A stretch of DNA of 64,000 bases from the NCBI GenBank assembly GCA_964650645.1, contig CAZYUH010000001.1, forward strand, positions 475,099 through 539,098. The letters are read 5' to 3'. Shown here piece by piece: positions 8,485 to 54,614 of the stretch. The notes under the pieces were generated by a model. The model ran no database searches and had not been told where the DNA came from. It worked only from the letters and a program-made list of their open reading frames with translations. The number at the start of each line of letters is the position of its first letter. Within the stretch, counting starts at the first letter, position 1. The DNA is from an uncultured Candidatus Saccharibacteria bacterium (lineage in GTDB: Bacteria; Patescibacteriota; Minisyncoccia; Phycocordibacterales; SBAW01). Position numbers and translations under genes: made by a program.

Positions 8485-8592
8485 CTCCGTAAAAGCAAGC
8501 GTTCCGGAGTGCGGGAATTTTTTGCTAAAAATTCCCTAACCTCGATTCCGTCGAATCTACGGACACTCCGGAACGCTTGCTTTTGCTCCGTA
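8485..8592. repeat. MITE-like palindromic element: 21-bp near-perfect terminal inverted repeats (AAAAGCAAGCGTTCCGGAGTG / CACTCCGGAACGCTTGCTTTT) flanked by direct CTCCGTA, with a nested 10-bp hairpin
   Basis: Seen directly: arms at 8491-8512 and 8564-8584, direct CTCCGTA at 8485-8491 and 8586-8592, inner GGGAATTTTT-tgct-AAAAATTCCC hairpin; begins right after the gyrB stop codon. Confidence 0.5.
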
Positions 8593-8594
8593 CC

Positions 8595-8627
8595 AAAAAA
8601 CTCCCCGGATATTCCGGGGAGTTTTTT
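8595..8627. terminator. bidirectional terminator (A6-CTCCCCGG-atat-CCGGGGAG-T6)
   Basis: Perfect hairpin flanked by an A-tract and a T-tract between gyrB (+) and the CARDB gene (-). Confidence 0.75.
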
Positions 8628-8654
8628 GCATAGCGTATGTTATTCCGCGAAGCC

Positions 8655-9695: not shown

Positions 9696-10292
9696 ATGCG
9701 CGCCCTCGCTTTCGCCGCCACCTTCATATGCTTCTTCTTCATGACCTACGCCTTTCTGGGGCTGGTCGACGCCCTGCCTAATCCGCCGGAGTCTGCTGAC
9801 ACCGCGTCGCGCGAGCCTGCCAGCGCGCCGGAGCCTGTCGCGCAGGATGCGCGCGAATTGCCGGTGCGCGTCGTGGTAAAGGACGCGGGCATAGACTCCA
9901 AGGTGCTCAACCCGGCCTCGACCGACCTCGATACGCTTAACGCCGCAGTGGACGAGGCGGCGATGCGCTGGCCCACCTCGGGCCTGCTTGGCCAGAACGG
10001 CACCGTGGCGCTCTTCGGCCACTCGTCGCATTTGCCGGTGGTCTACAACCAGGCGTACAAGACGTTCAACGGGATAGAGCACCTCAAGAAGGGCCAGATC
10101 GTGAGCGTCTATTCGGGCACGGCCGAATACCGCTACGCGGTTACGGGCGTGCGCGTCGCCAGCGCCGAGGAGGACGTCGTCGAGCTTCCGTCCGACGGGA
10201 AGCACCTCGTGCTCATCACCTGCGACAATTTCGGCAGCAAGTCCGACCGCTATGTCGTGACCGCGGATTTCCAGGGCGCGTACGCCCTTTAG
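9696..10292 (+). CDS. sortase-family transpeptidase
   Basis: N-terminal TM; catalytic-triad context ALFGHSS (His), LVLITCDNF (TLxTC Cys), downstream Arg (DRYVVTA); divergent from the CARDB gene. Confidence 0.7.
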   Translation: MRALAFAATFICFFFMTYAFLGLVDALPNPPESADTASREPASAPEPVAQDARELPVRVVVKDAGIDSKVLNPASTDLDTLNAAVDEAAMRWPTSGLLGQNGTVALFGHSSHLPVVYNQAYKTFNGIEHLKKGQIVSVYSGTAEYRYAVTGVRVASAEEDVVELPSDGKHLVLITCDNFGSKSDRYVVTADFQGAYAL

Positions 10293-10334
10293 GCTCTTAA
10301 AATAAGGACATTTTAATCGTCCTGTAGCAAGATA

Positions 10335-10363
10335 TTGACAAAAGGGGTCTAAGGTGATATACT
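10335..10363 (+). promoter_or_regulatory. consensus sigma70 promoter TTGACA-17-TATACT
   Basis: TTGACA 10335-10340, TATACT 10358-10363; about 160 nt upstream of the 10527 ATG. Confidence 0.7.
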
Positions 10364-10423
10364 CAACCTAATACTGCTCTTGGGGATTTTGGGGAGCACG
10401 CGTTGTAGGGGAGCGTTTGGACG

Positions 10424-10489
10424 GCTGGCAAGCCGTACAGGCGCTTTCCTGTAATGGGAAATGCGCCTTGCCGCGGGGCTTAGCCGCGG
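10424..10489 (+). promoter_or_regulatory. structured 5'-leader element related to the 28257 and 53983 repeats (GGCAAGC...GCTTGCC outer stem enclosing a CTTTCC-loop-GGAAA hairpin, then a CCGCGG hairpin)
   Basis: CTGGCAAGCCGTACAGGCGCTTTCCTGTAATGGGAAATGCGCCTTGCCG matches the core of elements A and B. Confidence 0.4.
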
Positions 10490-10526
10490 ATGAATCAGTA
10501 CTTCAACTCAAAAATAGGAGGGCCGC

Positions 10527-12305
10527 ATGGCCAAGCCAATCTACGTAAATGCGAAAGGTCAGCGCGTCGCTGAGGCTGATTCGGGCCAGTGGAGGGAAGT
10601 AAACGCTGCGGGCGAGCCGAAAGGCCCGTTCGCGGATTCTCCATTCAAGCATGGAGCCAATCCCCAGCCTGAATCATCGCCAGCTGCGCGAGCGGATGTG
10701 CCGGACGAAATCCGGCGCGTCGCTTCCGAGCTGGAATCGCTCAAAGCAAAGCTTAACGCCTTGCAGGAGTCGAAACCGGATCGCGGCCAGCTCAACCGGG
10801 CTGTCGAGGAGCTAGTAAGCCTCGCCAAGCAGGTGGGTGAACTGCGTGTCGCCTTTGGCGGCGCGGAACAGATCGAAGCGTTCGTTAAGAGCGTTGGCGA
10901 TCTGGCCGGGCAAATCCAAGAGCTGGACAAGCGCATCAACCAAGTCAGTGACAAGGTGGATGCCACTGCCGATACTCTCAATGAGGCCGGCAGAGGGGTA
11001 GTCGATCGCTTCAAGGCGGTTGAAGCCCGCATCAAGGAGCTCGAAAGCCGTCCGGCTGAAACCGTAGAACCTTCCAATCCTCACCCCCATACATCATCGC
11101 CCCGCGATGATGCGGGGCAAAAGAAGGAGGAGGCAATGCCTCAGACTGAGAATCGAACTGAGACGACGTCTAATTCCCAAGCTTCGCAACCGCCTCGCGG
11201 CGATGCGGGGCAAAAGGAGAAGTTCATGTCATCCTTCAGGTCTAATCCTATCGCGGTTTTCGGAGCTGCGGCGGTCGTTGCTTTCCTTGGCTGGTTGGTA
11301 TTCGGCTTCAGTCATGCGCCGCAGAAGGTAACGACCGCACTGGGCACCGTCGATAACGGCTCTGCCGTTGTTGCCGAGACCCCGGCCCAGCGCGACCGCC
11401 GCTTCGCGGAGATCGCGGGAGCGACCTTCGACCAGCGCATCCAGCCGATCGACAGGGACCTGGAGAAGCTCAAGTCAAAGACTGACGGCTTGACCAGCAA
11501 CCTTTCCGACCTGGGCACCCAGGTTGCCAAGGTTGAAAAGAGCGTCGCGTCGGGCATCGAGAAGGTGATGGCCCAGCTGGAGAAGGTGGTAAACGCCAAG
11601 ACGTCGTCCGATACGGACGAGGTCGAGGCCAAGCGCCTTGCCCAGATTAAGGCAGAATGTTTGCCTGATTCGGAAACGACGAAGGGCTTGGACCTGAAGA
11701 AGGACCTGCCCGAAGAAACGTTCCAGTCTGTCTTGCGCATCTGCCGCGCGGAGAAAGAGGAGAAGATGCGCCAGGCTCAGACGCCTGTCGGGTCCCTTCC
11801 TTCGCCTCAGGCGCGGACGCTTCCCGCGTCCGTGAACGCGGCGGACCTTCCCGAGGCTGCGGATGATTCGTCATTCCAGCCGCAGGGTGCCGATGCATCC
11901 GGGGATGCGGGGGACGGACAGTCCGCCGCTTCCTTGGGAGGCGACGACCTGACGGGGCCCTACGACCCCCGGACGGCCAAGGCAATGTCACCAGGCGTTG
12001 CGCACGTTGCGCAGGCGGGGTACATGGGCCCGGGCGTCGGCGGCCCCGGATTCGGACCTGTAGGTCCCGGGTTCGGGCCTGGTCCCCGCGGCGGCCGTAT
12101 CAGCGGTCCTCGGTGTCCTCGCGGAAGCGCCTTCAATCCGCGGTACGGGAAGTGCATCGGAACCCGATTGCATGATTTACCCGTATCTCCCCAGATGGGG
12201 CAAATACTCAGCACGTGCAGGGATATTGTCACGCGCGAAGTGTGGAAGAACGGACACCTCACCCAGCAGCAGAAGGGAATCGGCTGCCGGCGTCCGGCCT
12301 ACTAA
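10527..12305 (+). CDS. bitopic coiled-coil membrane protein (592 aa), internal duplicated PRxDAGQK motif, Gly/Pro- and Cys-containing C-terminus
   Basis: AGGAGGG RBS 5 nt before the ATG; heptad-like segments on both sides of the single TM (AVFGAAAVVAFLGWLVFGF); no homolog recognised. Confidence 0.6.
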   Translation: MAKPIYVNAKGQRVAEADSGQWREVNAAGEPKGPFADSPFKHGANPQPESSPAARADVPDEIRRVASELESLKAKLNALQESKPDRGQLNRAVEELVSLAKQVGELRVAFGGAEQIEAFVKSVGDLAGQIQELDKRINQVSDKVDATADTLNEAGRGVVDRFKAVEARIKELESRPAETVEPSNPHPHTSSPRDDAGQKKEEAMPQTENRTETTSNSQASQPPRGDAGQKEKFMSSFRSNPIAVFGAAAVVAFLGWLVFGFSHAPQKVTTALGTVDNGSAVVAETPAQRDRRFAEIAGATFDQRIQPIDRDLEKLKSKTDGLTSNLSDLGTQVAKVEKSVASGIEKVMAQLEKVVNAKTSSDTDEVEAKRLAQIKAECLPDSETTKGLDLKKDLPEETFQSVLRICRAEKEEKMRQAQTPVGSLPSPQARTLPASVNAADLPEAADDSSFQPQGADASGDAGDGQSAASLGGDDLTGPYDPRTAKAMSPGVAHVAQAGYMGPGVGGPGFGPVGPGFGPGPRGGRISGPRCPRGSAFNPRYGKCIGTRLHDLPVSPQMGQILSTCRDIVTREVWKNGHLTQQQKGIGCRRPAY

Positions 12306-12405: not shown

Positions 12406-12434
12406 TTGACAGTATTATCAAGGTCTTGTAAGTT
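12406..12434 (+). promoter_or_regulatory. sigma70-type promoter TTGACA-17-TAAGTT
   Basis: The track start 12406 is the TTG of the -35 hexamer; the real ATG is 12463, preceded by AGGAG. Confidence 0.65.
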
Positions 12435-12462
12435 GCGTGCGTTTATTAGGAGCGAATATAAT

Positions 12463-13524
12463 ATGACTACCATTATAAAGAACATCATCGGTGCAGCGTT
12501 CGCGCTCATGGCGCTCGCCCTCCCGGTCGGTTCCGCTTTCGCGGCCGATCTTGACCTGGGTAGCTATGACACCGGCTGGTCGGATACGGGTTACTACGAT
12601 TCATACGATGCGTCGTACGACAGCTACTACGACACCGGCTGGACGGACACCGGCTACTACGATACGTACGATGCGTCGTACGATACCGGCTGGGTCGACA
12701 CCGGCTACTACGATACGTACGATGCGTCGTATGACACTGGCTGGGTCGACACCGGCTACTATGACACCTACTCTCCGTCGTACAGCACCGGCTACTCGAT
12801 GCCTTCCTTCGGCGGGATGTCCTTCGGCGGCTCCTCGTTCGGCGGCGGCTACGGCTACGGGATGCCTTCGTTCGGCACGCCCAACTACGCCTACCGCCAG
12901 GCCAACTACCCCCAGTTCCTGCCCCCGTCCAATACGGTAGTCGAGACCAACACCTGCACCGACAACTCCTGCAACTACGTCGACAACAGCATCGTCGACA
13001 ACAGCGTGGTGGACAACAGCGTCGTCGACAACAGCGTCACCATAGAGAACTCCTTCAACAACCAGGAGAAGAAGCGCGAGCGCCGCGACGACTACTGCTA
13101 CGACTACAACTACGGCAACCAGCAGGGCTACGGCCAGCAGGGCTACACCTACGGCTCGTACGCTTACCAGGGCAACTGCTACAGCTACGCCGCCCCGATA
13201 CCGCTGCCGCCGGTCAACACCACCCCGTACATCACGCTCTCGCAGACCCCGTACACCGGCCTCGACCTCGGGCCCTTCGGCGAGGTGCTCTACTGGACCT
13301 TCCTCGTCCTGTGGTGCCTGGGCGCCGCGTACCTGGTCGTCGTCAAGCGCGTCCAGAACAGGCTCGTCGGCTTCCTTAACGGCTTCCTGTTCGGCGGCGC
13401 ATCCGCCGCGGCCGCAGCGCCCGCTGCCCGCGCCGCTCACGCTCCGCAGGCTGCCGCAGCATCCGCTCCGCTCGTAGAAGAGGGCATCGACCCCTTCATC
13501 ATGAGCCAGATCAAGCGCTCCTAA
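12463..13524 (+). CDS. secreted Tyr/Asp/Gly/Thr-rich tandem-repeat protein with C-terminal TM segment
   Basis: Signal peptide MTTIIKNIIGAAFALMALALPVGSAFA; 4 x 17-aa repeats (YDTGWxDTGYYDTYDAS); VDNS pentapeptide repeats; GY/YG-rich tract; TPYTG + hydrophobic + KR near the C-terminus. Confidence 0.65.
   Translation: MTTIIKNIIGAAFALMALALPVGSAFAADLDLGSYDTGWSDTGYYDSYDASYDSYYDTGWTDTGYYDTYDASYDTGWVDTGYYDTYDASYDTGWVDTGYYDTYSPSYSTGYSMPSFGGMSFGGSSFGGGYGYGMPSFGTPNYAYRQANYPQFLPPSNTVVETNTCTDNSCNYVDNSIVDNSVVDNSVVDNSVTIENSFNNQEKKRERRDDYCYDYNYGNQQGYGQQGYTYGSYAYQGNCYSYAAPIPLPPVNTTPYITLSQTPYTGLDLGPFGEVLYWTFLVLWCLGAAYLVVVKRVQNRLVGFLNGFLFGGASAAAAAPAARAAHAPQAAAASAPLVEEGIDPFIMSQIKRS
12571..12780 (+). repeat. 4 x 51-nt tandem direct repeats, coding (inside CDS 12463..13524)
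   Basis: Units tacgatacgtacgatgcgtcgtacgataccggctgggtcgacaccggctac, nearly identical at 12655-12705 and 12706-12756. Confidence 0.8.
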
Positions 13525-16078: not shown

Positions 16079-19000
16079 TTACAGGGCCTTGAGCGCCTCG
16101 GTGACTATCGAGAACTCGCCGTTGCGGTTGGAGATGCGGCCCTTTATCGCGATGCAGGCGTCGGGGCGCAGGATGGGCTTGTACTCGGCGTAGCTCTTGG
16201 GGAAGACCACTGCTTCGACCGCGCCCGAGAAGTCGGCAAGCTTTATAAACGCCATCTGGTCGCCATTCTTGGTAAGCAGAACGCGCAGGCTCTCTATCAT
16301 GCCGGCGACCACGGTGGTGGTGCCGGGGTAGGAGCGCTCCTTTATCTGCGCGAGGTTGAGGGGGCGCCGGTCGAGCTTCTCCTTGAACTTGTCCAAAGGG
16401 TGGCCCGAAACGTAGAGGCCCAGCAGCTCCTTCTCCCACGCGAGGCGCTGGTCCTGGGTCGCGGGCGGGGCCGGCGGCACGCGTATCTCGCTCATGCCCT
16501 CGACGTCGGCGAAGAGGGAATCGTGCATCTTCTCGGCGCCGGCGTCGCGGTGGTACTGCAGGAGCTGCTCGATGTGCGCGAGCATCGCGCCGCGCTCGCC
16601 CATGGAGTCGAGCGCCCCGCACATGATGAGGCTCTCGAGCCCCTTCTTGTTGAGCCCGTTGTCGGTGACGCGGGTAAGGAAGTCCGACAGCGAGGCGAAG
16701 GGGCCGTTCGCGCGCCGCTCATTGATGATGGAGTCGGCCACGCCGCGGCCGAAGTTCTTTATGGAATAGAGGCCGAAGCGGATGGAATCGGGGGAGGCCG
16801 GGGAGGTTTCGGAAGCTGTAGGCGTGGCGGAAGCAACAGGTGCCCCGGCGACGCTATCCTCCTCTCTTGCGGATCGGAGCGTCGCCGAAACACCTGTTGC
16901 TTCCGCCGGGCTTGCAGTCTCTGCCTTGCCTGCCGGAGCGCTCCCCAGTATCACCGTGAAGTCGCCGAAGGACTCGTTGACGTCGGGCGCGAGCATGGGG
17001 ATGCCCATGCGCTTGCACTCGGCGACCATGACGGACACCTTCTCCACGTCGCCCGCTTCCGCCGTGAGCACCGCGGTCATGTACTCGACCGGGTAGTTGG
17101 CCTTCATGTAGGCGGTCTGGTAGGAGACGCGCCCGTAGCTCGCAGAGTGCGCCTTGTTGAAGCCGTACGCGGCGAAGGGCTCAATCCATGCCCACACCTG
17201 CTCTGCCTTCTTCTGCGGCCACCCGGAATGCTCGACGCATCCCTTGATGAACTTCTCGCGCTGGGCGGCCATCTCCTCGGGGATCTTCTTGCCGACCGCC
17301 TTGCGGAACTTGTCCACCTCGCCCCAGCTGTAGCCCGCCAGCTGGTTGGCCATGATGAGCAGGTCGTCCTGGTACACGAGGATGCCGTAGGTCTGCCTGA
17401 GGATGGGCTCCATCGCGCGGTCGAGGTAGCGGATGAGCGCGGGGTTGTGCTTGCGCTCGATGTACTGCGGGATGAACTGCATCGGGCCCGGGCGGTAGAG
17501 CGCCACCATCGCGTTGATGTCGTGGATGGTCGTGGGGCGCAGCTCCTTGAGGAAGCGCGTCATGCCCGAGCCGTTGAGCTGGAACGTGGCCTCGGTCTCG
17601 CCGCGCGTGAGCATGTCGAAGGTGCGCTTGTCGTCCAGAGGTATCGCCTCGATGTCTATCCTTTCGCCGCGCGTGCGCTCCACGAGGTTGACCGCGTTGG
17701 CGAGGATGGTGAGGTTGCGTATGCCGAGGAAGTCGAACTTGGTGAGCCCCGCGCCGTCCTCGCCCACGGAGTACATGTCGTACTGCGTGATTATCTTGCC
17801 GCCCTTGGGGTCGAGCTGGAGCGGCGCGAACTCCACCAGCGGCACGGGCGAAATGACGACGCCCGCGGCGTGCACGCCCACGTGGCGCGCGCACCCTTCT
17901 ATCTTCTGGCCGAGGCCTATTATCTCGCGCACCTGCGGGTCGGCCTTGTGCATCTTCGCGAGCTCGGGGTTCTCCTGCATGGCGCGCTCGAGCGTCATGG
18001 GGAAGCCCTGGCTGCCCATCGGGATTTCCTTGGCTATCGCGTCGCCCAGGCCGTAGGGCAGGCCCAGCGCGCGGGCAACGTCGCGCACGACGCCGCGCGC
18101 GAGCATGGTGCCGAAGGTGCCTATCTGCGCCACATGCTCCGTGCCGTACTTGGCGCGGGCGTAGTCTATGACCTCGTCGCGCCTGTCGTCGGCGAAGTCC
18201 ATGTCGATGTCGGGGGCCGAGGGGCGCTCGGGGTTGAGGAAGCGCTCGAAGGGGATCTTGTAGGAAAGCGGCTCGATCTTGGTTATCCGCAGGAGGTAGG
18301 TGACCATGGAGCCCGCGACCGAGCCGCGGATGTTGGTGTAGATGTCGTTCTCGCGCGCGAAGCGTATGAGGTCCTCCACCACCAGGAAGTACGCCGCGTA
18401 GCCCTTGAACTTGATGATGCCCAGCTCGTACTCGAGCCGCTCCATGACGTCGTCGCGGCCCTCGAGCCCGCGCGGCCTGAGGCCCGCCAGGCACAGCTCG
18501 CGCAGGCGGTCGTCGGCGGTCACGCCCTCGGGCAGGGCGAAATGGGGGAACACGAACTTGCCGAGCGTGAGCTCCAGATTGCACTTTTCCGCGATCTCGA
18601 GCGACGCCTTCAGCGCCTCGTCGCCGAGCTTCGCGCGCATCTCGCTTTCGTTCAGGAACGAGTAGTCTATCTCCTCGCCGTCCATGGTCATGCCGTCGTC
18701 CGCCGGGCCGCGGTTCTCTATCGCGCGCATCGTCTCCCATGCGCGGCGGTCCTCCGGGGAAAGGTAGTACGTCTCGTGCGTCGGCATGATGTAGAAGTCG
18801 CCGCCCCAGCGCTTCCTGTGCGCGGCGCTCAGGGACGACTCCGCCCGCTCGAGTGCGACGAGGCCGCCCGCGCGCGCGTCGAGCATCGCGGCGGTGATGG
18901 GGCGGCCCTGGGGGTCCTCGATGTGCGACTCGGTGACGAGCTTCATGAGGTTCTTGTAGCCCTCGAGGTCCTTGGCGTAGAGCAAAATCCGGTGGTGGTC

Positions 19001-27881: not shown

Positions 27882-28256
27882 ATGGCCACGGAGAAGGACC
27901 AGGAGTTTTTGGAATTCGTCGTCAAGGGGCTCGTCGAGCATCCCGAGGACATAAAAGTGAGCCGGGTCGTGGACGAGATGGGCGTTCTCCTGACGCTCGA
28001 CCTCAATGCCGAGGATATGGGCAAGGTCATAGGCCGCTCGGGCAATACCGCCAAGGCCATCCGCACCCTCCTGCGCGTCGTCGGGATGAAGCACAACGCG
28101 CGCGTCAATTTAAAGATTAACGAGCCGGTCGGCGGCCAGCGCAGCATGGACGCCGGCGGCTCAGCGGCCCAGGGCTGGGACGGCACCCACGAGGCGCCCG
28201 CCACTCCCGCCATGAAGTCCATAGACGAGGCCATGGGCGAGCTCGATAATTTCTAA
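27882..28256 (+). CDS. KH-domain RNA-binding protein (KhpA/YlqC-like)
   Basis: GxxG loop VIGRSGNTAKAIRTLL; conserved position after rpsP. Confidence 0.85.
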   Translation: MATEKDQEFLEFVVKGLVEHPEDIKVSRVVDEMGVLLTLDLNAEDMGKVIGRSGNTAKAIRTLLRVVGMKHNARVNLKINEPVGGQRSMDAGGSAAQGWDGTHEAPATPAMKSIDEAMGELDNF

Positions 28257-28378
28257 AGCTCCGCGAAATCGGCCGGCAAGCGATACCCGACTTTTCTGAT
28301 GAAAATCGGCTGATCCTCATTCCCGAGGGTCGTCAGACGATGCCTGCGGAGCCGCTTGCCGGCCGATTTCGCTTCGAC
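28257..28378 (+). repeat. structured intergenic element, copy A: CTCCGC / GAAATCGGCCGGCAAGCG stems enclosing a CCGAC-TTTTC-tgat-GAAAA-TCGG hairpin; begins at the stop codon
   Basis: Second copy at 53983..54092 (about 80% identical over about 110 nt) and a related core at 10424..10489; 18-bp inverted repeat GAAATCGGCCGGCAAGCG / CGCTTGCCGGCCGATTTC. Confidence 0.55.
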
Positions 28379-28380
28379 AC

Positions 28381-28416
28381 GCGAAAGCCGCCTGCAGGGC
28401 GGCTTTCGCTTTTGCG
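28381..28416 (+). terminator. intrinsic terminator (GAAAGCCGCC-tgcag-GGCGGCTTTC + GCTTTTG)
   Basis: 10-bp stem followed by a T-run. Confidence 0.65.
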
Positions 28417-53460: not shown

Positions 53461-53982
53461 ATGCATACCATAAGGCCCAAGGAGGACCAGAACTTCTGGA
53501 ACTTCCTCTTTTCCGTATTCTTTATCATCGTGCTGGTCGCGGGGCTCTGGGTCATGCGCGACGTGCGCGGCGGGTTCCTGACCTCGGTGCCGGCGTTCGA
53601 CGCCTTCATGATGGCCTTCGCCGCGTTCCGCATCACGCGCCTCGTGGTGTACGACAAGATAACCCGCTGGTTCCGCGAGCTCTTCGCGAAGAGGGCCGTA
53701 GTGGAGCGCGACGGCGTGCCGTACGTGGAAGTGACGCCGTACTCCAAGGGCTTTGCCGCCACGGTCTACGACCTCCTCAGCTGCCCGTGGTGCATCGGCA
53801 TCTGGTCCTCGGCCATAGTCGTGTTCGCGTACTTCATATTCCCGTGGGCGTGGTCGGTCATCTTCTTCCTCGCCATCGCGGGCGCAGGCTCGCTCCTGCA
53901 GGTTATCGCGAACGGTGTCGGCTGGCGCGCCGAGATCCTCAAGATGGAGGCCCAGGAGCAGAAGCGCGACCTGCGCTTGTAA
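53461..53982 (+). CDS. DUF1360-family membrane protein (CPWCIGIW motif)
   Basis: ATG 53461 after AGGGGC; TM helices and the conserved LSCPWCIGIWSS segment. Confidence 0.6.
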   Translation: MHTIRPKEDQNFWNFLFSVFFIIVLVAGLWVMRDVRGGFLTSVPAFDAFMMAFAAFRITRLVVYDKITRWFRELFAKRAVVERDGVPYVEVTPYSKGFAATVYDLLSCPWCIGIWSSAIVVFAYFIFPWAWSVIFFLAIAGAGSLLQVIANGVGWRAEILKMEAQEQKRDLRL

Positions 53983-54092
53983 AGGCTCCGCAAATCCTGA
54001 CCGGCAAGCGGTACCCGGCTTTTCTGGGGAAAACCGGCTGATCCTCGGTCGCCGCCTGCGGAGCCGCTTGCCGGTCAGATTCGCTCCGCATC
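53983..54092 (+). repeat. structured intergenic element, copy B (homolog of 28257..28378), begins at the stop codon; flanked by direct GCTCCGC
   Basis: GCTCCGCaaatcctgaCCGGCAAGCGGTACCCGGCTTTTCTGGGGAAAACCGGCTGATCCTC...CTGCGGAGCCGCTTGCCGGtcagattcGCTCCGC; compensatory A:T -> G:C change in the inner hairpin relative to copy A. Confidence 0.55.
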
Positions 54093-54127
54093 AAAAAAAC
54101 TCCCCGAGGGGAGTTTTTTCGCGAAAT
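54093..54127. terminator. bidirectional terminator (A7-CTCCCC-gag-GGGGAG-T6), same type as the one after gyrB
   Basis: Perfect hairpin with flanking A-tract and T-tract. Confidence 0.75.
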
Positions 54128-54143
54128 TGATTCCGCGGAGCCT

Positions 54144-54614
54144 TTAGAACCTGACCGGAATCTCGAGCGACTTGTCGTTCTCGGGGAGGCCGGAGGGGTT
54201 GTCGTTGCGCAGCACTACGGTGCCCACGGAGCCCGCGGGCTGGGCCGGGAAGGGGAGCGTTATCATGAACGGCACGTACTCCTCGGTCATCCAGTCGCCC
54301 TGCGCCTGCGCCGGGCCTTCGGCTATGACCGCGCCCGCCGCGTCCTTTATCTGGACGGGGAAGGAGGCCTCGAAGTACCAGGTGCCGCGCGCGCGGCCCC
54401 ACATGGTGAGCGGCGAGGAGATCGAGTCGTTGTCCTTGAGGGACTCGACGACCAGCAAGTCCTCGTAGGAGGGGTTCGGCGCCGGCGGCGTCGTGGCCGC
54501 CTGGCCGTCGCCCAGCGTCGGGGCCTTGGTGTTGCCCGGGAGCATGAAAAGGATAATGGCCGCGATAATGATAAGTATGCCCACTATGATGACCGCCCAT
54601 CCTGTCTTGTTCAT
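54144..54614 (-). CDS. membrane-anchored hypothetical protein (N-terminal TM, Pro/Thr linker, beta-rich domain)
   Basis: ATG 54614; TATACT -10 ends 6 nt upstream, so leaderless; last gene of the GH130 operon direction. Confidence 0.5.
   Translation of the reverse strand: MNKTGWAVIIVGILIIIAAIILFMLPGNTKAPTLGDGQAATTPPAPNPSYEDLLVVESLKDNDSISSPLTMWGRARGTWYFEASFPVQIKDAAGAVIAEGPAQAQGDWMTEEYVPFMITLPFPAQPAGSVGTVVLRNDNPSGLPENDKSLEIPVRF

Follow-up and report, generated by a model that had tools for sequence, protein, structure and literature searches.

A conserved, structured 5′ leader ahead of a fast-evolving envelope gene in Patescibacteria

Leaders of surface-layer (S-layer) genes, such as that of slpA in Lactobacillus, join a strong promoter to a 5′ untranslated region (UTR) in which a stem-loop stabilises the mRNA and exposes the ribosome-binding site (RBS) (PMC10221546). 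A 64-kb stretch of contig CAZYUH010000001.1 (64,000 nt; hereafter the window, in which all positions are counted) carries an arrangement of this kind, in which a near-consensus sigma-70-type promoter, a leader of ~157 nt and a Shine-Dalgarno (SD) sequence stand in front of the gene for a 592-aa coiled-coil envelope protein. Homologs of the neighbouring sortase place the organism in Patescibacteria, their sources being named Candidatus Paceibacterota, Adlerbacteria and Parcubacteria. To our knowledge, the regulatory RNAs of such bacteria of the candidate phyla radiation (CPR) are almost unexplored. The leader is a lineage-specific, conserved, folded RNA, in which two hairpins, P2 and P3, pair in the sense strand and covary among relatives. 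By analogy with the S-layer leaders, we suggest, with a probability of about 0.5, that it is a lineage-specific structured 5′ UTR that would, by stabilising the mRNA and leaving the RBS exposed, support high expression of the envelope gene; of this reading, the structure is far better founded than the function.

The region inspected was 10100-10800, with 10364-10526 taken as the leader region. Folding was by RNAfold, and the energies and z-scores quoted for individual hairpins (P1, P2 and P3) and for the motif of an earlier, first-pass annotation are those of each element folded alone. The centrepiece is P2, a 25-bp hairpin that folds at -37.0 kcal/mol (z -6.3) around the loop GGCA (10427-10430) and is the predicted minimum free energy and centroid fold in 8/8 distinct leaders. 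Because 7/25 of its pairs are G-U and the minus strand reaches only -19.3 kcal/mol, the structure belongs to the sense RNA rather than to the DNA. P3, a shorter hairpin with a GGCUUAG loop, follows after a single-stranded linker, and directly behind it stands an unpaired tail, AUGAAUCAGUACUU, which is not an intrinsic terminator since no U-tract comes after it. The spacer before the SD is always A/C-rich across leaders (CAACUCAAAAAU, CAAUAAACCACACAUCAA, UCCAACCAACACAGCA). Most centroids leave the SD unpaired, pairings in its region differ from sequence to sequence, and the folds of 8 leaders contain no conserved helix over the SD or the AUG. The least supported part of the leader is P1, the small hairpin at its 5′ end, which is present in the related loci L004 and L006, poorly preserved in L009 (helix 84% paired) and absent from the second leader type described below.

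The putative promoter matches 11/12 consensus positions in a consensus scan and carries the additional TG of an extended -10 element. It is one of four near-consensus sigma-70 sites in the window (10335, 29951, 38239 on the minus strand, and 53070), as against none in shuffled sequence. Judged from the position of the -10 element, transcription would start near 10370, and the leader length given above is counted from there to the ATG at 10527.

Five sequences make up the set that we call type I, and together with the second type there are 8 distinct leaders from ~5 lineages. The orthologous loci share the order gyrB, a CARDB-like gene on the minus strand, sortase, a gap of ~235 nt and then the envelope gene. 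In L004-L008 the protein is ~52% identical, while promoter and leader together show 93% mean column identity; the alignment with the window collapses right past ATGGC. Nucleotide identity between the window and L006 is 93% for the promoter, 80.7% for the leader, 82.6% for the sortase gene and 88% for gyrB, compared with 46-64% in other intergenic regions and 42-48% in the downstream coding sequence. The first-pass annotation had proposed that the leader is a cis-located structured element and had named conservation upstream of orthologs as a check; the outcome speaks for it, with promoter (93%) and leader (81%) retained ahead of a ~52%-identity ortholog and the leader still present and recognisable in L009, where the protein is only 42% identical. 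The 592-aa protein has few relatives, and with its orthologs at 42-52% identity the gene evolves much faster than its own leader. At the other end, conservation in the ortholog alignment reaches upstream of the -35 element (ATAAGGACATTTTAA), and AGGAGGGCCGCATGGC at the SD is invariant across L003-L008.

Substitutions within type I (n=5) largely preserve the two hairpins. In P2, 97.6% of alignment cells are paired, with one compensatory change (G-C to A-U) and five one-sided changes; its G/A mismatch becomes G-U in this comparison, and its loop varies freely between GGCA, UAUC and UAUG. P3 is 100% paired, and in L009 has one compensatory change (C-G to U-A) and one C-G to U-G, so that the CCGCGG hairpin singled out by the first-pass annotation is kept with compensation. 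Several further readings of the leader were rejected. A conserved leader peptide is ruled out because single-nucleotide indels in L009 break the frame; an upstream open reading frame at ATG 10490 has no SD and only 6 codons in L006; the linker shows no conserved pairing with the SD or AUG; and a pseudoknot of the UGUAAU loop with GUUGUA fails because the 6-nt closed loop could not pair fully.

A second type of leader was found at four loci (L014, L025, L033 and L034) whose sortases are 72-82% identical and where two extra genes stand behind the sortase. All four have a promoter of the form TTGACAAAA-17-TATA(C/A)T, the same architecture as in the window, followed by a leader of 163-175 nt and a gene for a secreted Pro/Cys-rich protein of 212-242 aa. 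Folding yields the parts in the order known from type I: first an irregular long hairpin whose loop varies, next a G-rich segment, then a short CCGC-(AC)AGGCUA-GCGG hairpin and finally AUGACCAGCACCUU, which occupies the place of the type I tail. By sequence alone the local alignment between the types is marginal, being matched by 52/1000 to 328/1000 shuffles, with L009 against L014 at 8/1000. An alignment of both types with MAFFT was rejected, as it aligns on CCGTTCAG and misplaces P3, and one built from the matches of a first covariance model was left out for its reverse-strand and spurious rows; we used a covariance-model alignment and a structure-guided table instead. A covariance model trained on the four type II sequences only, whose E-values are rough (factor ~5), returned type I leaders as the top four non-training plus-strand matches of the combined search, with L006 at 18 bits (E 0.005), L004 at E 0.025 and L009 at E 0.9. 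The window leader scored more weakly (7.6 bits), exactly over 10395-10508 and with P2 arms placed on P2 arms. In the structure-guided table of 8 sequences, 24 pairs are shared, 96% of cells are paired and 11 pairs are changed on both sides. The coordinates of these and other features of the locus are collected in Table 1.

Table 1. Features of the leader locus and of the palindromic elements in the window.
Feature	Coordinates	Strand	Description
sigma-70-type promoter (putative)	10335-10363	+	-35 TTGACA 10335-10340; 17-nt spacer; extended -10 TG-a-TATACT 10355-10363 (TG 10355-10356, TATACT 10358-10363)
P1	10375-10398	+	small 5′-proximal hairpin GCUCUUGGGGAUUUUGGGGAGC; starts ~5 nt past the predicted transcription start; -8.9 kcal/mol, z -3.6
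P2	10401-10456	+	25-bp hairpin; lower stem 18-19 bp, 1x1 G/A mismatch, 6-bp apical stem ACGGCU/AGCCGU
Linker	10457-10470	+	GGGAAAUGCGCCUU, single-stranded, between P2 and P3; G-rich start can compete for the P2 pyrimidine strand
P3	10471-10489	+	hairpin CCGCGG-GGCUUAG-CCGCGG; -12.3 kcal/mol; conserved loop GGCU(U)A
Tail	10490-10503	+	AUGAAUCAGUACUU, unpaired, directly 3′ of P3; nearly invariant in type I
Spacer	10504-10515	+	A/C-rich, unstructured, before the RBS; variable length and sequence
SD and start codon (sequence reading)	10516-10529	+	AGGAGGG 10516-10522; ATG 10527-10529
Envelope gene	10527-12305	+	592-aa coiled-coil protein; central membrane segment; Cys-rich C-terminus ending C-RR
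Motif of the first-pass annotation	10425-10473	+	outer stem GGCAAG 10427-10432/CTTGCC 10467-10472; inner stem GGCGCTTTCC/GGGAAATGCGCC
Sortase gene	9696-10292		upstream of the leader
gyrB, end	8484		
Element C	8488-8590		gyrB 3′ region; real third A/B-type element
Element A	28255-28385		between stop codon and intrinsic terminator
Element B	53985-54095		between stop codon and intrinsic terminator

Further leaders were sought more widely. A scan of a metagenome collection with the P2 core as a DNA pattern gave 0 matches, 0 loci in the same collection could be confirmed from a protein-based scan, and two viral-contig scans gave 0 matches; a protein-based genome scan returned one locus only, L013, from a metagenome-assembled genome labelled Saccharibacteria with a 38%-identical ortholog. 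Neither did the leader resemble a catalogued RNA: Rfam 15 (4227 families, gathering threshold) had 0 matches in the whole window, the best match on the leader, mir-4776, falling far short with 16.6 bits (threshold 97), and searches at E-value thresholds with the leader, element A and four related loci (L008, L009, L025, L033) found nothing. Resemblances to signal recognition particle RNA, 6S RNA and preQ1-like elements were considered and rejected, having no Rfam support. An RNA thermometer of the ROSE or fourU type was considered and rejected because P2, with its -37 kcal/mol, is much too stable for melting; the SD also lies at least 27 nt downstream of P3, in the unstructured spacer. For the thermosensor or riboswitch function that the first-pass annotation had envisaged, no expression platform was found, there being neither a terminator-like site on the plus strand in 10364-10526 nor a conserved helix covering the SD.

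The literal features quoted in that annotation are all present – promoter, ~157-nt leader, a 49-mer (CTGGCAAGCC...CCTTGCCG, at 10425-10473), CCGCGG-GGCTTAG-CCGCGG at 10471-10489 and AGGAGGG-ATG – and a structured cis-leader is borne out. The fold that it drew for the 49-mer, GGCAAGCC.../...GCCTTGCC around TTTCC-loop-GGAAA, does not hold, as RNAfold gives P2 instead, with the GGCA of GGCAAGCC as the P2 loop. Folded alone, the motif reaches -21.8 kcal/mol (z -2.5). Its outer stem, GGCAAG/CTTGCC, overlaps P3 by 2 nt (10471-10472) and is mutually exclusive with the far more stable P2; it is 76.7% paired, and 2-3/6 of its pairs are lost in each other lineage (L004, L006, L009). The ortholog counterparts of CTTGCC are CTTCAC or CCGTAC, and those of GGCA are UAUC or UAUG because GGCA is the loop of P2. 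The inner helix TTTCC/GGAAA is 88.9% paired and almost invariant. In type I, folds with the 5′ arm of P2 blocked are 15-20 kcal/mol less favourable, and it is in these alone that the helix forms, as the UUUCC/GGGAA hairpin; the apical ACGGCU/AGCCGU stem then stays, and the GGCAAG/CTTGCC stem does not form. In these models the inner hairpin UUUCC-UGUAAU-GGGAAA is thus a plausible minor alternative conformer, and the outer stem is not.

The same annotation had linked the leader to two elements elsewhere in the window, A and B, reading it as their third, reduced copy (GGCAAGCG...CGCTTGCC around TTTyC-loop-GrAAA), so that one RNA motif would occur both in 3′ regions and in a 5′ leader. Likenesses can indeed be listed: GGCAAGC-GTAC and CTTT-CTG are common to the leader and B, the pattern GGCAAGCNGTAC is exact only in these two, the motif folds by itself with the energy given above, and 4/6 outer pairs are kept in L006 with altered bases. 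The similarity is nevertheless at noise level. Between A and B the repeat relationship is genuine (blastn E 4.5e-17), whereas the best blastn alignment of the leader with A has 19.7 bits (E 7-9), which dozens of unrelated window sites equal or exceed, and with the leader covariance model A and B reach 8.5-9.5 bits (E 1.5-3) on either strand, a generic long-hairpin match. GGCA belongs to a variable loop, CTTGCC is unconserved and partly within P3, no other lineage keeps the outer stem intact, and nothing alike occurs in type II leaders. The real third member is element C, with an outer stem of 23 bp (AAAAGCAAGCGTTCCGGAGTG/CACTCCGGAACGCTTGCTTTT; -57.6 kcal/mol, z -11.6), an inner hairpin GGGAAUUUUU-UGCU-AAAAAUUCCC (in DNA GGGAATTTTT-TGCT-AAAAATTCCC), flanks ACTCCG...GCTCCG and then a bidirectional terminator at 8597-8628. 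A, B and C are REP/MITE-like (repetitive extragenic palindrome or miniature inverted-repeat transposable element) units of 3′ UTRs, ~100 nt long, with near-perfect outer stems of 19-23 bp, a position between stop codon and terminator, and (G/A)CTCCG flanks, GCTCCG among them. The leader shares with them that it is hairpin-rich and intergenic and that an inner U-run/loop/A-run hairpin can be drawn in it, in competition with P2; it has none of their diagnostic features, lying between promoter and SD with an A/B-like outer stem of at most 6 bp. Descent from A/B is the least credible of the explanations weighed here, and a false link is thereby removed: the leader and the palindromic repeats of 3′ UTRs have no motif in common.

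Some observations on these elements are recorded for their own sake. The regions 28255-28385 and 53981-54150 hold A and B directly behind stop codons and ahead of intrinsic terminators. At B, TAAAGGCTCCGC at 53980 has an inverted repeat at 54135-54146, at the end of a convergent gene, and GGCTCCGCA can pair with an internal TGCGGAGCC, which would form a pseudoknot or take the place of the long outer stem. A separate long inverted repeat (GGCGGAAGCAACAGGTG...CACCTGTTGCTTCCGCC) in a GC-rich stretch at 16826-16907 is matched by the leader model as a generic hairpin (15.6 bits, E 0.02).

How the leader might act can be put in a few steps. A near-consensus, constitutive promoter would give a transcript that, in this sub-lineage, begins with the small hairpin P1; the stable hairpins P2 and P3 would slow its decay; the unstructured A/C-rich spacer would keep the RBS open, with a strong, exposed SD; and the leader would thus secure, in cis, high and stable expression of the envelope gene. 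Both the presumed abundance of the transcript and the stabilising or translational role are argued by analogy. Several points weigh against this reading. Type II leaders begin with ~28 unpaired nt and have no P1, so a protective 5′-terminal hairpin is not a conserved feature; in L013 and L032 the promoter and SD context is the same, including AAGGAGGGCCTCATGGC at the SD in L013, with leaders of 77-85 nt that lack P2 and P3, which are therefore dispensable in some lineages. The unity of the two types is qualified too, in that the type I covariance model run on the type II loci finds no type II leaders, most of the covariation between types amounts to a single type I/type II event in an alignment fitted to structure, and the sequences number only 8, from ~5 lineages. 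Finally, the invariant unpaired P3 loop GGCUUAG and the tail exceed the needs of a mere stabiliser, suggesting a contact with protein or a tertiary contact and making regulatory input possible, and each lineage keeps a segment able to compete with the P2 5′ arm, which hints at a switch. In such a switch, the main rival, a ligand or protein would engage the P2 5′ arm, the P3 loop or the tail, and the exchange of P2 for the UUUCC-UGUAAU-GGGAAA hairpin would alter translation or decay of the envelope mRNA. Two mutually exclusive pairings on one pyrimidine strand fit this idea, the alternative hairpin forming once the 5′ arm is blocked: in each lineage a G-rich linker segment of 4-6 nt 3′ of P2 is complementary to the P2 3′ arm, with GGGAAA, GGGGAC, GGGAC and GGAC opposite CUUUCC, GUCUCC, GUCCC and GUCC. 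The invariant nucleotides of P3 loop and tail also fit, and the lack of any Rfam match means that the switch would be new. On the other side, P2 is favoured by the 15-20 kcal/mol already mentioned in type I and by 7-13 kcal/mol in type II, the alternative stem hardly varies within type I and so lacks independent covariation, and neither a downstream terminator nor conserved sequestration of the SD or AUG provides an output. Each locus has a single copy, and so does the 64-kb window (blastn and the leader covariance model find no second); there is hence no sign of a regulon, and the genes in question encode structural proteins of the envelope, not metabolic or transport functions. We consider a switch possible but tentative. 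The broader proposal, that leaders with P2, P3 and tail are an undescribed, ligand- or protein-responsive class of cis-regulatory RNA in a CPR lineage of Patescibacteria, with the P3 loop and tail as recognition surface, seems to us rather doubtful; if it were true, the switch would control envelope proteins with a possible use at the surface of these episymbiotic cells.

Two further explanations were weighed. The P2-P3 core (~110 nt) could be a relic, a domesticated or neutral insertion without function in an originally short leader, as the short leaders of L013 and L032 in the same promoter and SD context and the palindromic repeats A, B and C in this genome might suggest. Yet terminal repeats and target duplications are absent, as is a second copy in the window or the other loci; the core is conserved like the neighbouring protein-coding genes and above other intergenic DNA, its substitutions keep sense-strand pairing through G-U pairs, and both leader types still carry the core although the genes around it have been rearranged. 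We regard a relic as unlikely. Still less probable, in our view, are operator palindromes acting at the DNA level or an antisense or independent small RNA, for which long inverted repeats beside a promoter and the conservation upstream of the -35 element would speak: the G-U pairs make P2 an imperfect DNA palindrome, its antisense strand has about half the folding energy, P2 begins ~30 nt downstream of the predicted transcription start rather than over the promoter, no terminator separates P2 from the SD, and a scan of the minus strand across the leader gave no promoter-like site. The stabilising, RBS-exposing leader thus stays our preferred reading. The leader matches housekeeping genes in conservation, while the envelope gene that follows changes quickly and in sister lineages is even replaced, a pattern that points to selection on the amount of protein rather than on its identity.

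The genes around the leader deserve brief comment. Pfam matches of the 592-aa protein are of coiled-coil type and all sub-threshold, none reaching a family threshold. Within its reading frame, a block of ~110 nt in 11103-11228 is 100% identical in DNA to L004/L006, orthologs of 52% identity, and is absent from L009; it has direct-repeat flanks (CGCGATGATGCGGGGCAAAAGAAGGAG / CGCGGCGATGCGGGGCAAAAGGAG) with an SD and ATG in each, contains the palindromes CTCAG-A-CTGAG and AGACG-A-CGTCT, and encodes in frame AMPQTENRTETTSNSQASQPPRGDAGQKEK, directly ahead of the membrane segment. Possible readings of this block are an in-frame insertion, an internal start and a recombination target. The next gene (12406-13524) encodes a secreted protein of 372 aa with DTGYYD/SYD repeats and an LPXTG-like TPYTG, then a hydrophobic segment with KR and an extra tail of ~65 aa; it is conserved in L013 (48% identity, E 7e-79), and the gene behind the Pro/Cys-rich protein of L025 is homologous to this L013 counterpart (E 2.6e-06). 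The proteins behind the leaders of the two types (window 10527-12305; L014 4455-5144; L025 2094-2732; L033 3030-3716; L034 4522-5250) show no blastp homology, and all end in a Cys-rich C-(x)-RR or similar sequence (GIGCRRPAY, TCRR, CPGWVCHRR, CPGWVCQR, CPGWACRRSSR), which may be a shared C-terminal signal beside the sortase gene. In L004 (1525-1764 and 2539-2778; also in L005 and L007) promoter and leader occur twice, ~1014 nt apart, with a truncated second sortase reading frame (109 aa) between the copies, either through tandem duplication of the sortase 3′ end, leader and gene 5′ end or as an assembly variant. The window fragment is 60-65% G+C, though the relatives of its sortase are labelled Patescibacteria, Candidatus Paceibacterota or Adlerbacteria.

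In conclusion, the leader is a new, narrowly distributed structured 5′ UTR. Its value is modest: it offers a concrete RNA element, and a candidate cassette of strong native promoter and leader for organisms without genetic tools. With riboswitches and protein-binding mRNA leaders it has in common the 5′ location in cis, covarying helices, conserved unpaired nucleotides and a possible alternative pairing; it differs from riboswitches in its single locus per genome fragment and in that neither an expression platform nor a multi-stem junction or pseudoknot was detected, and its covariation is drawn from only ~5 lineages, hairpins alone not being an aptamer. The closer parallel is with the 5′ UTR of slpA, a functional class rather than a sequence family, to which the leader has no sequence relationship. 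The leader differs from that class in its Patescibacteria host, in its invariant unpaired nucleotides and competing pairing, and in its proteins, which are a coiled-coil membrane protein (type I) or small secreted Pro/Cys-rich proteins (type II) rather than a demonstrated S-layer protein; a hairpin at or within a few nucleotides of the 5′ end, as expected of this class, would have a counterpart at most in the P1 of type I. What the two share is a strong promoter, a leader of more than 100 nt with a stable stem-loop, an exposed RBS and an envelope gene downstream, and by this analogy their effect, stabilisation of the mRNA and efficient translation, would be alike.

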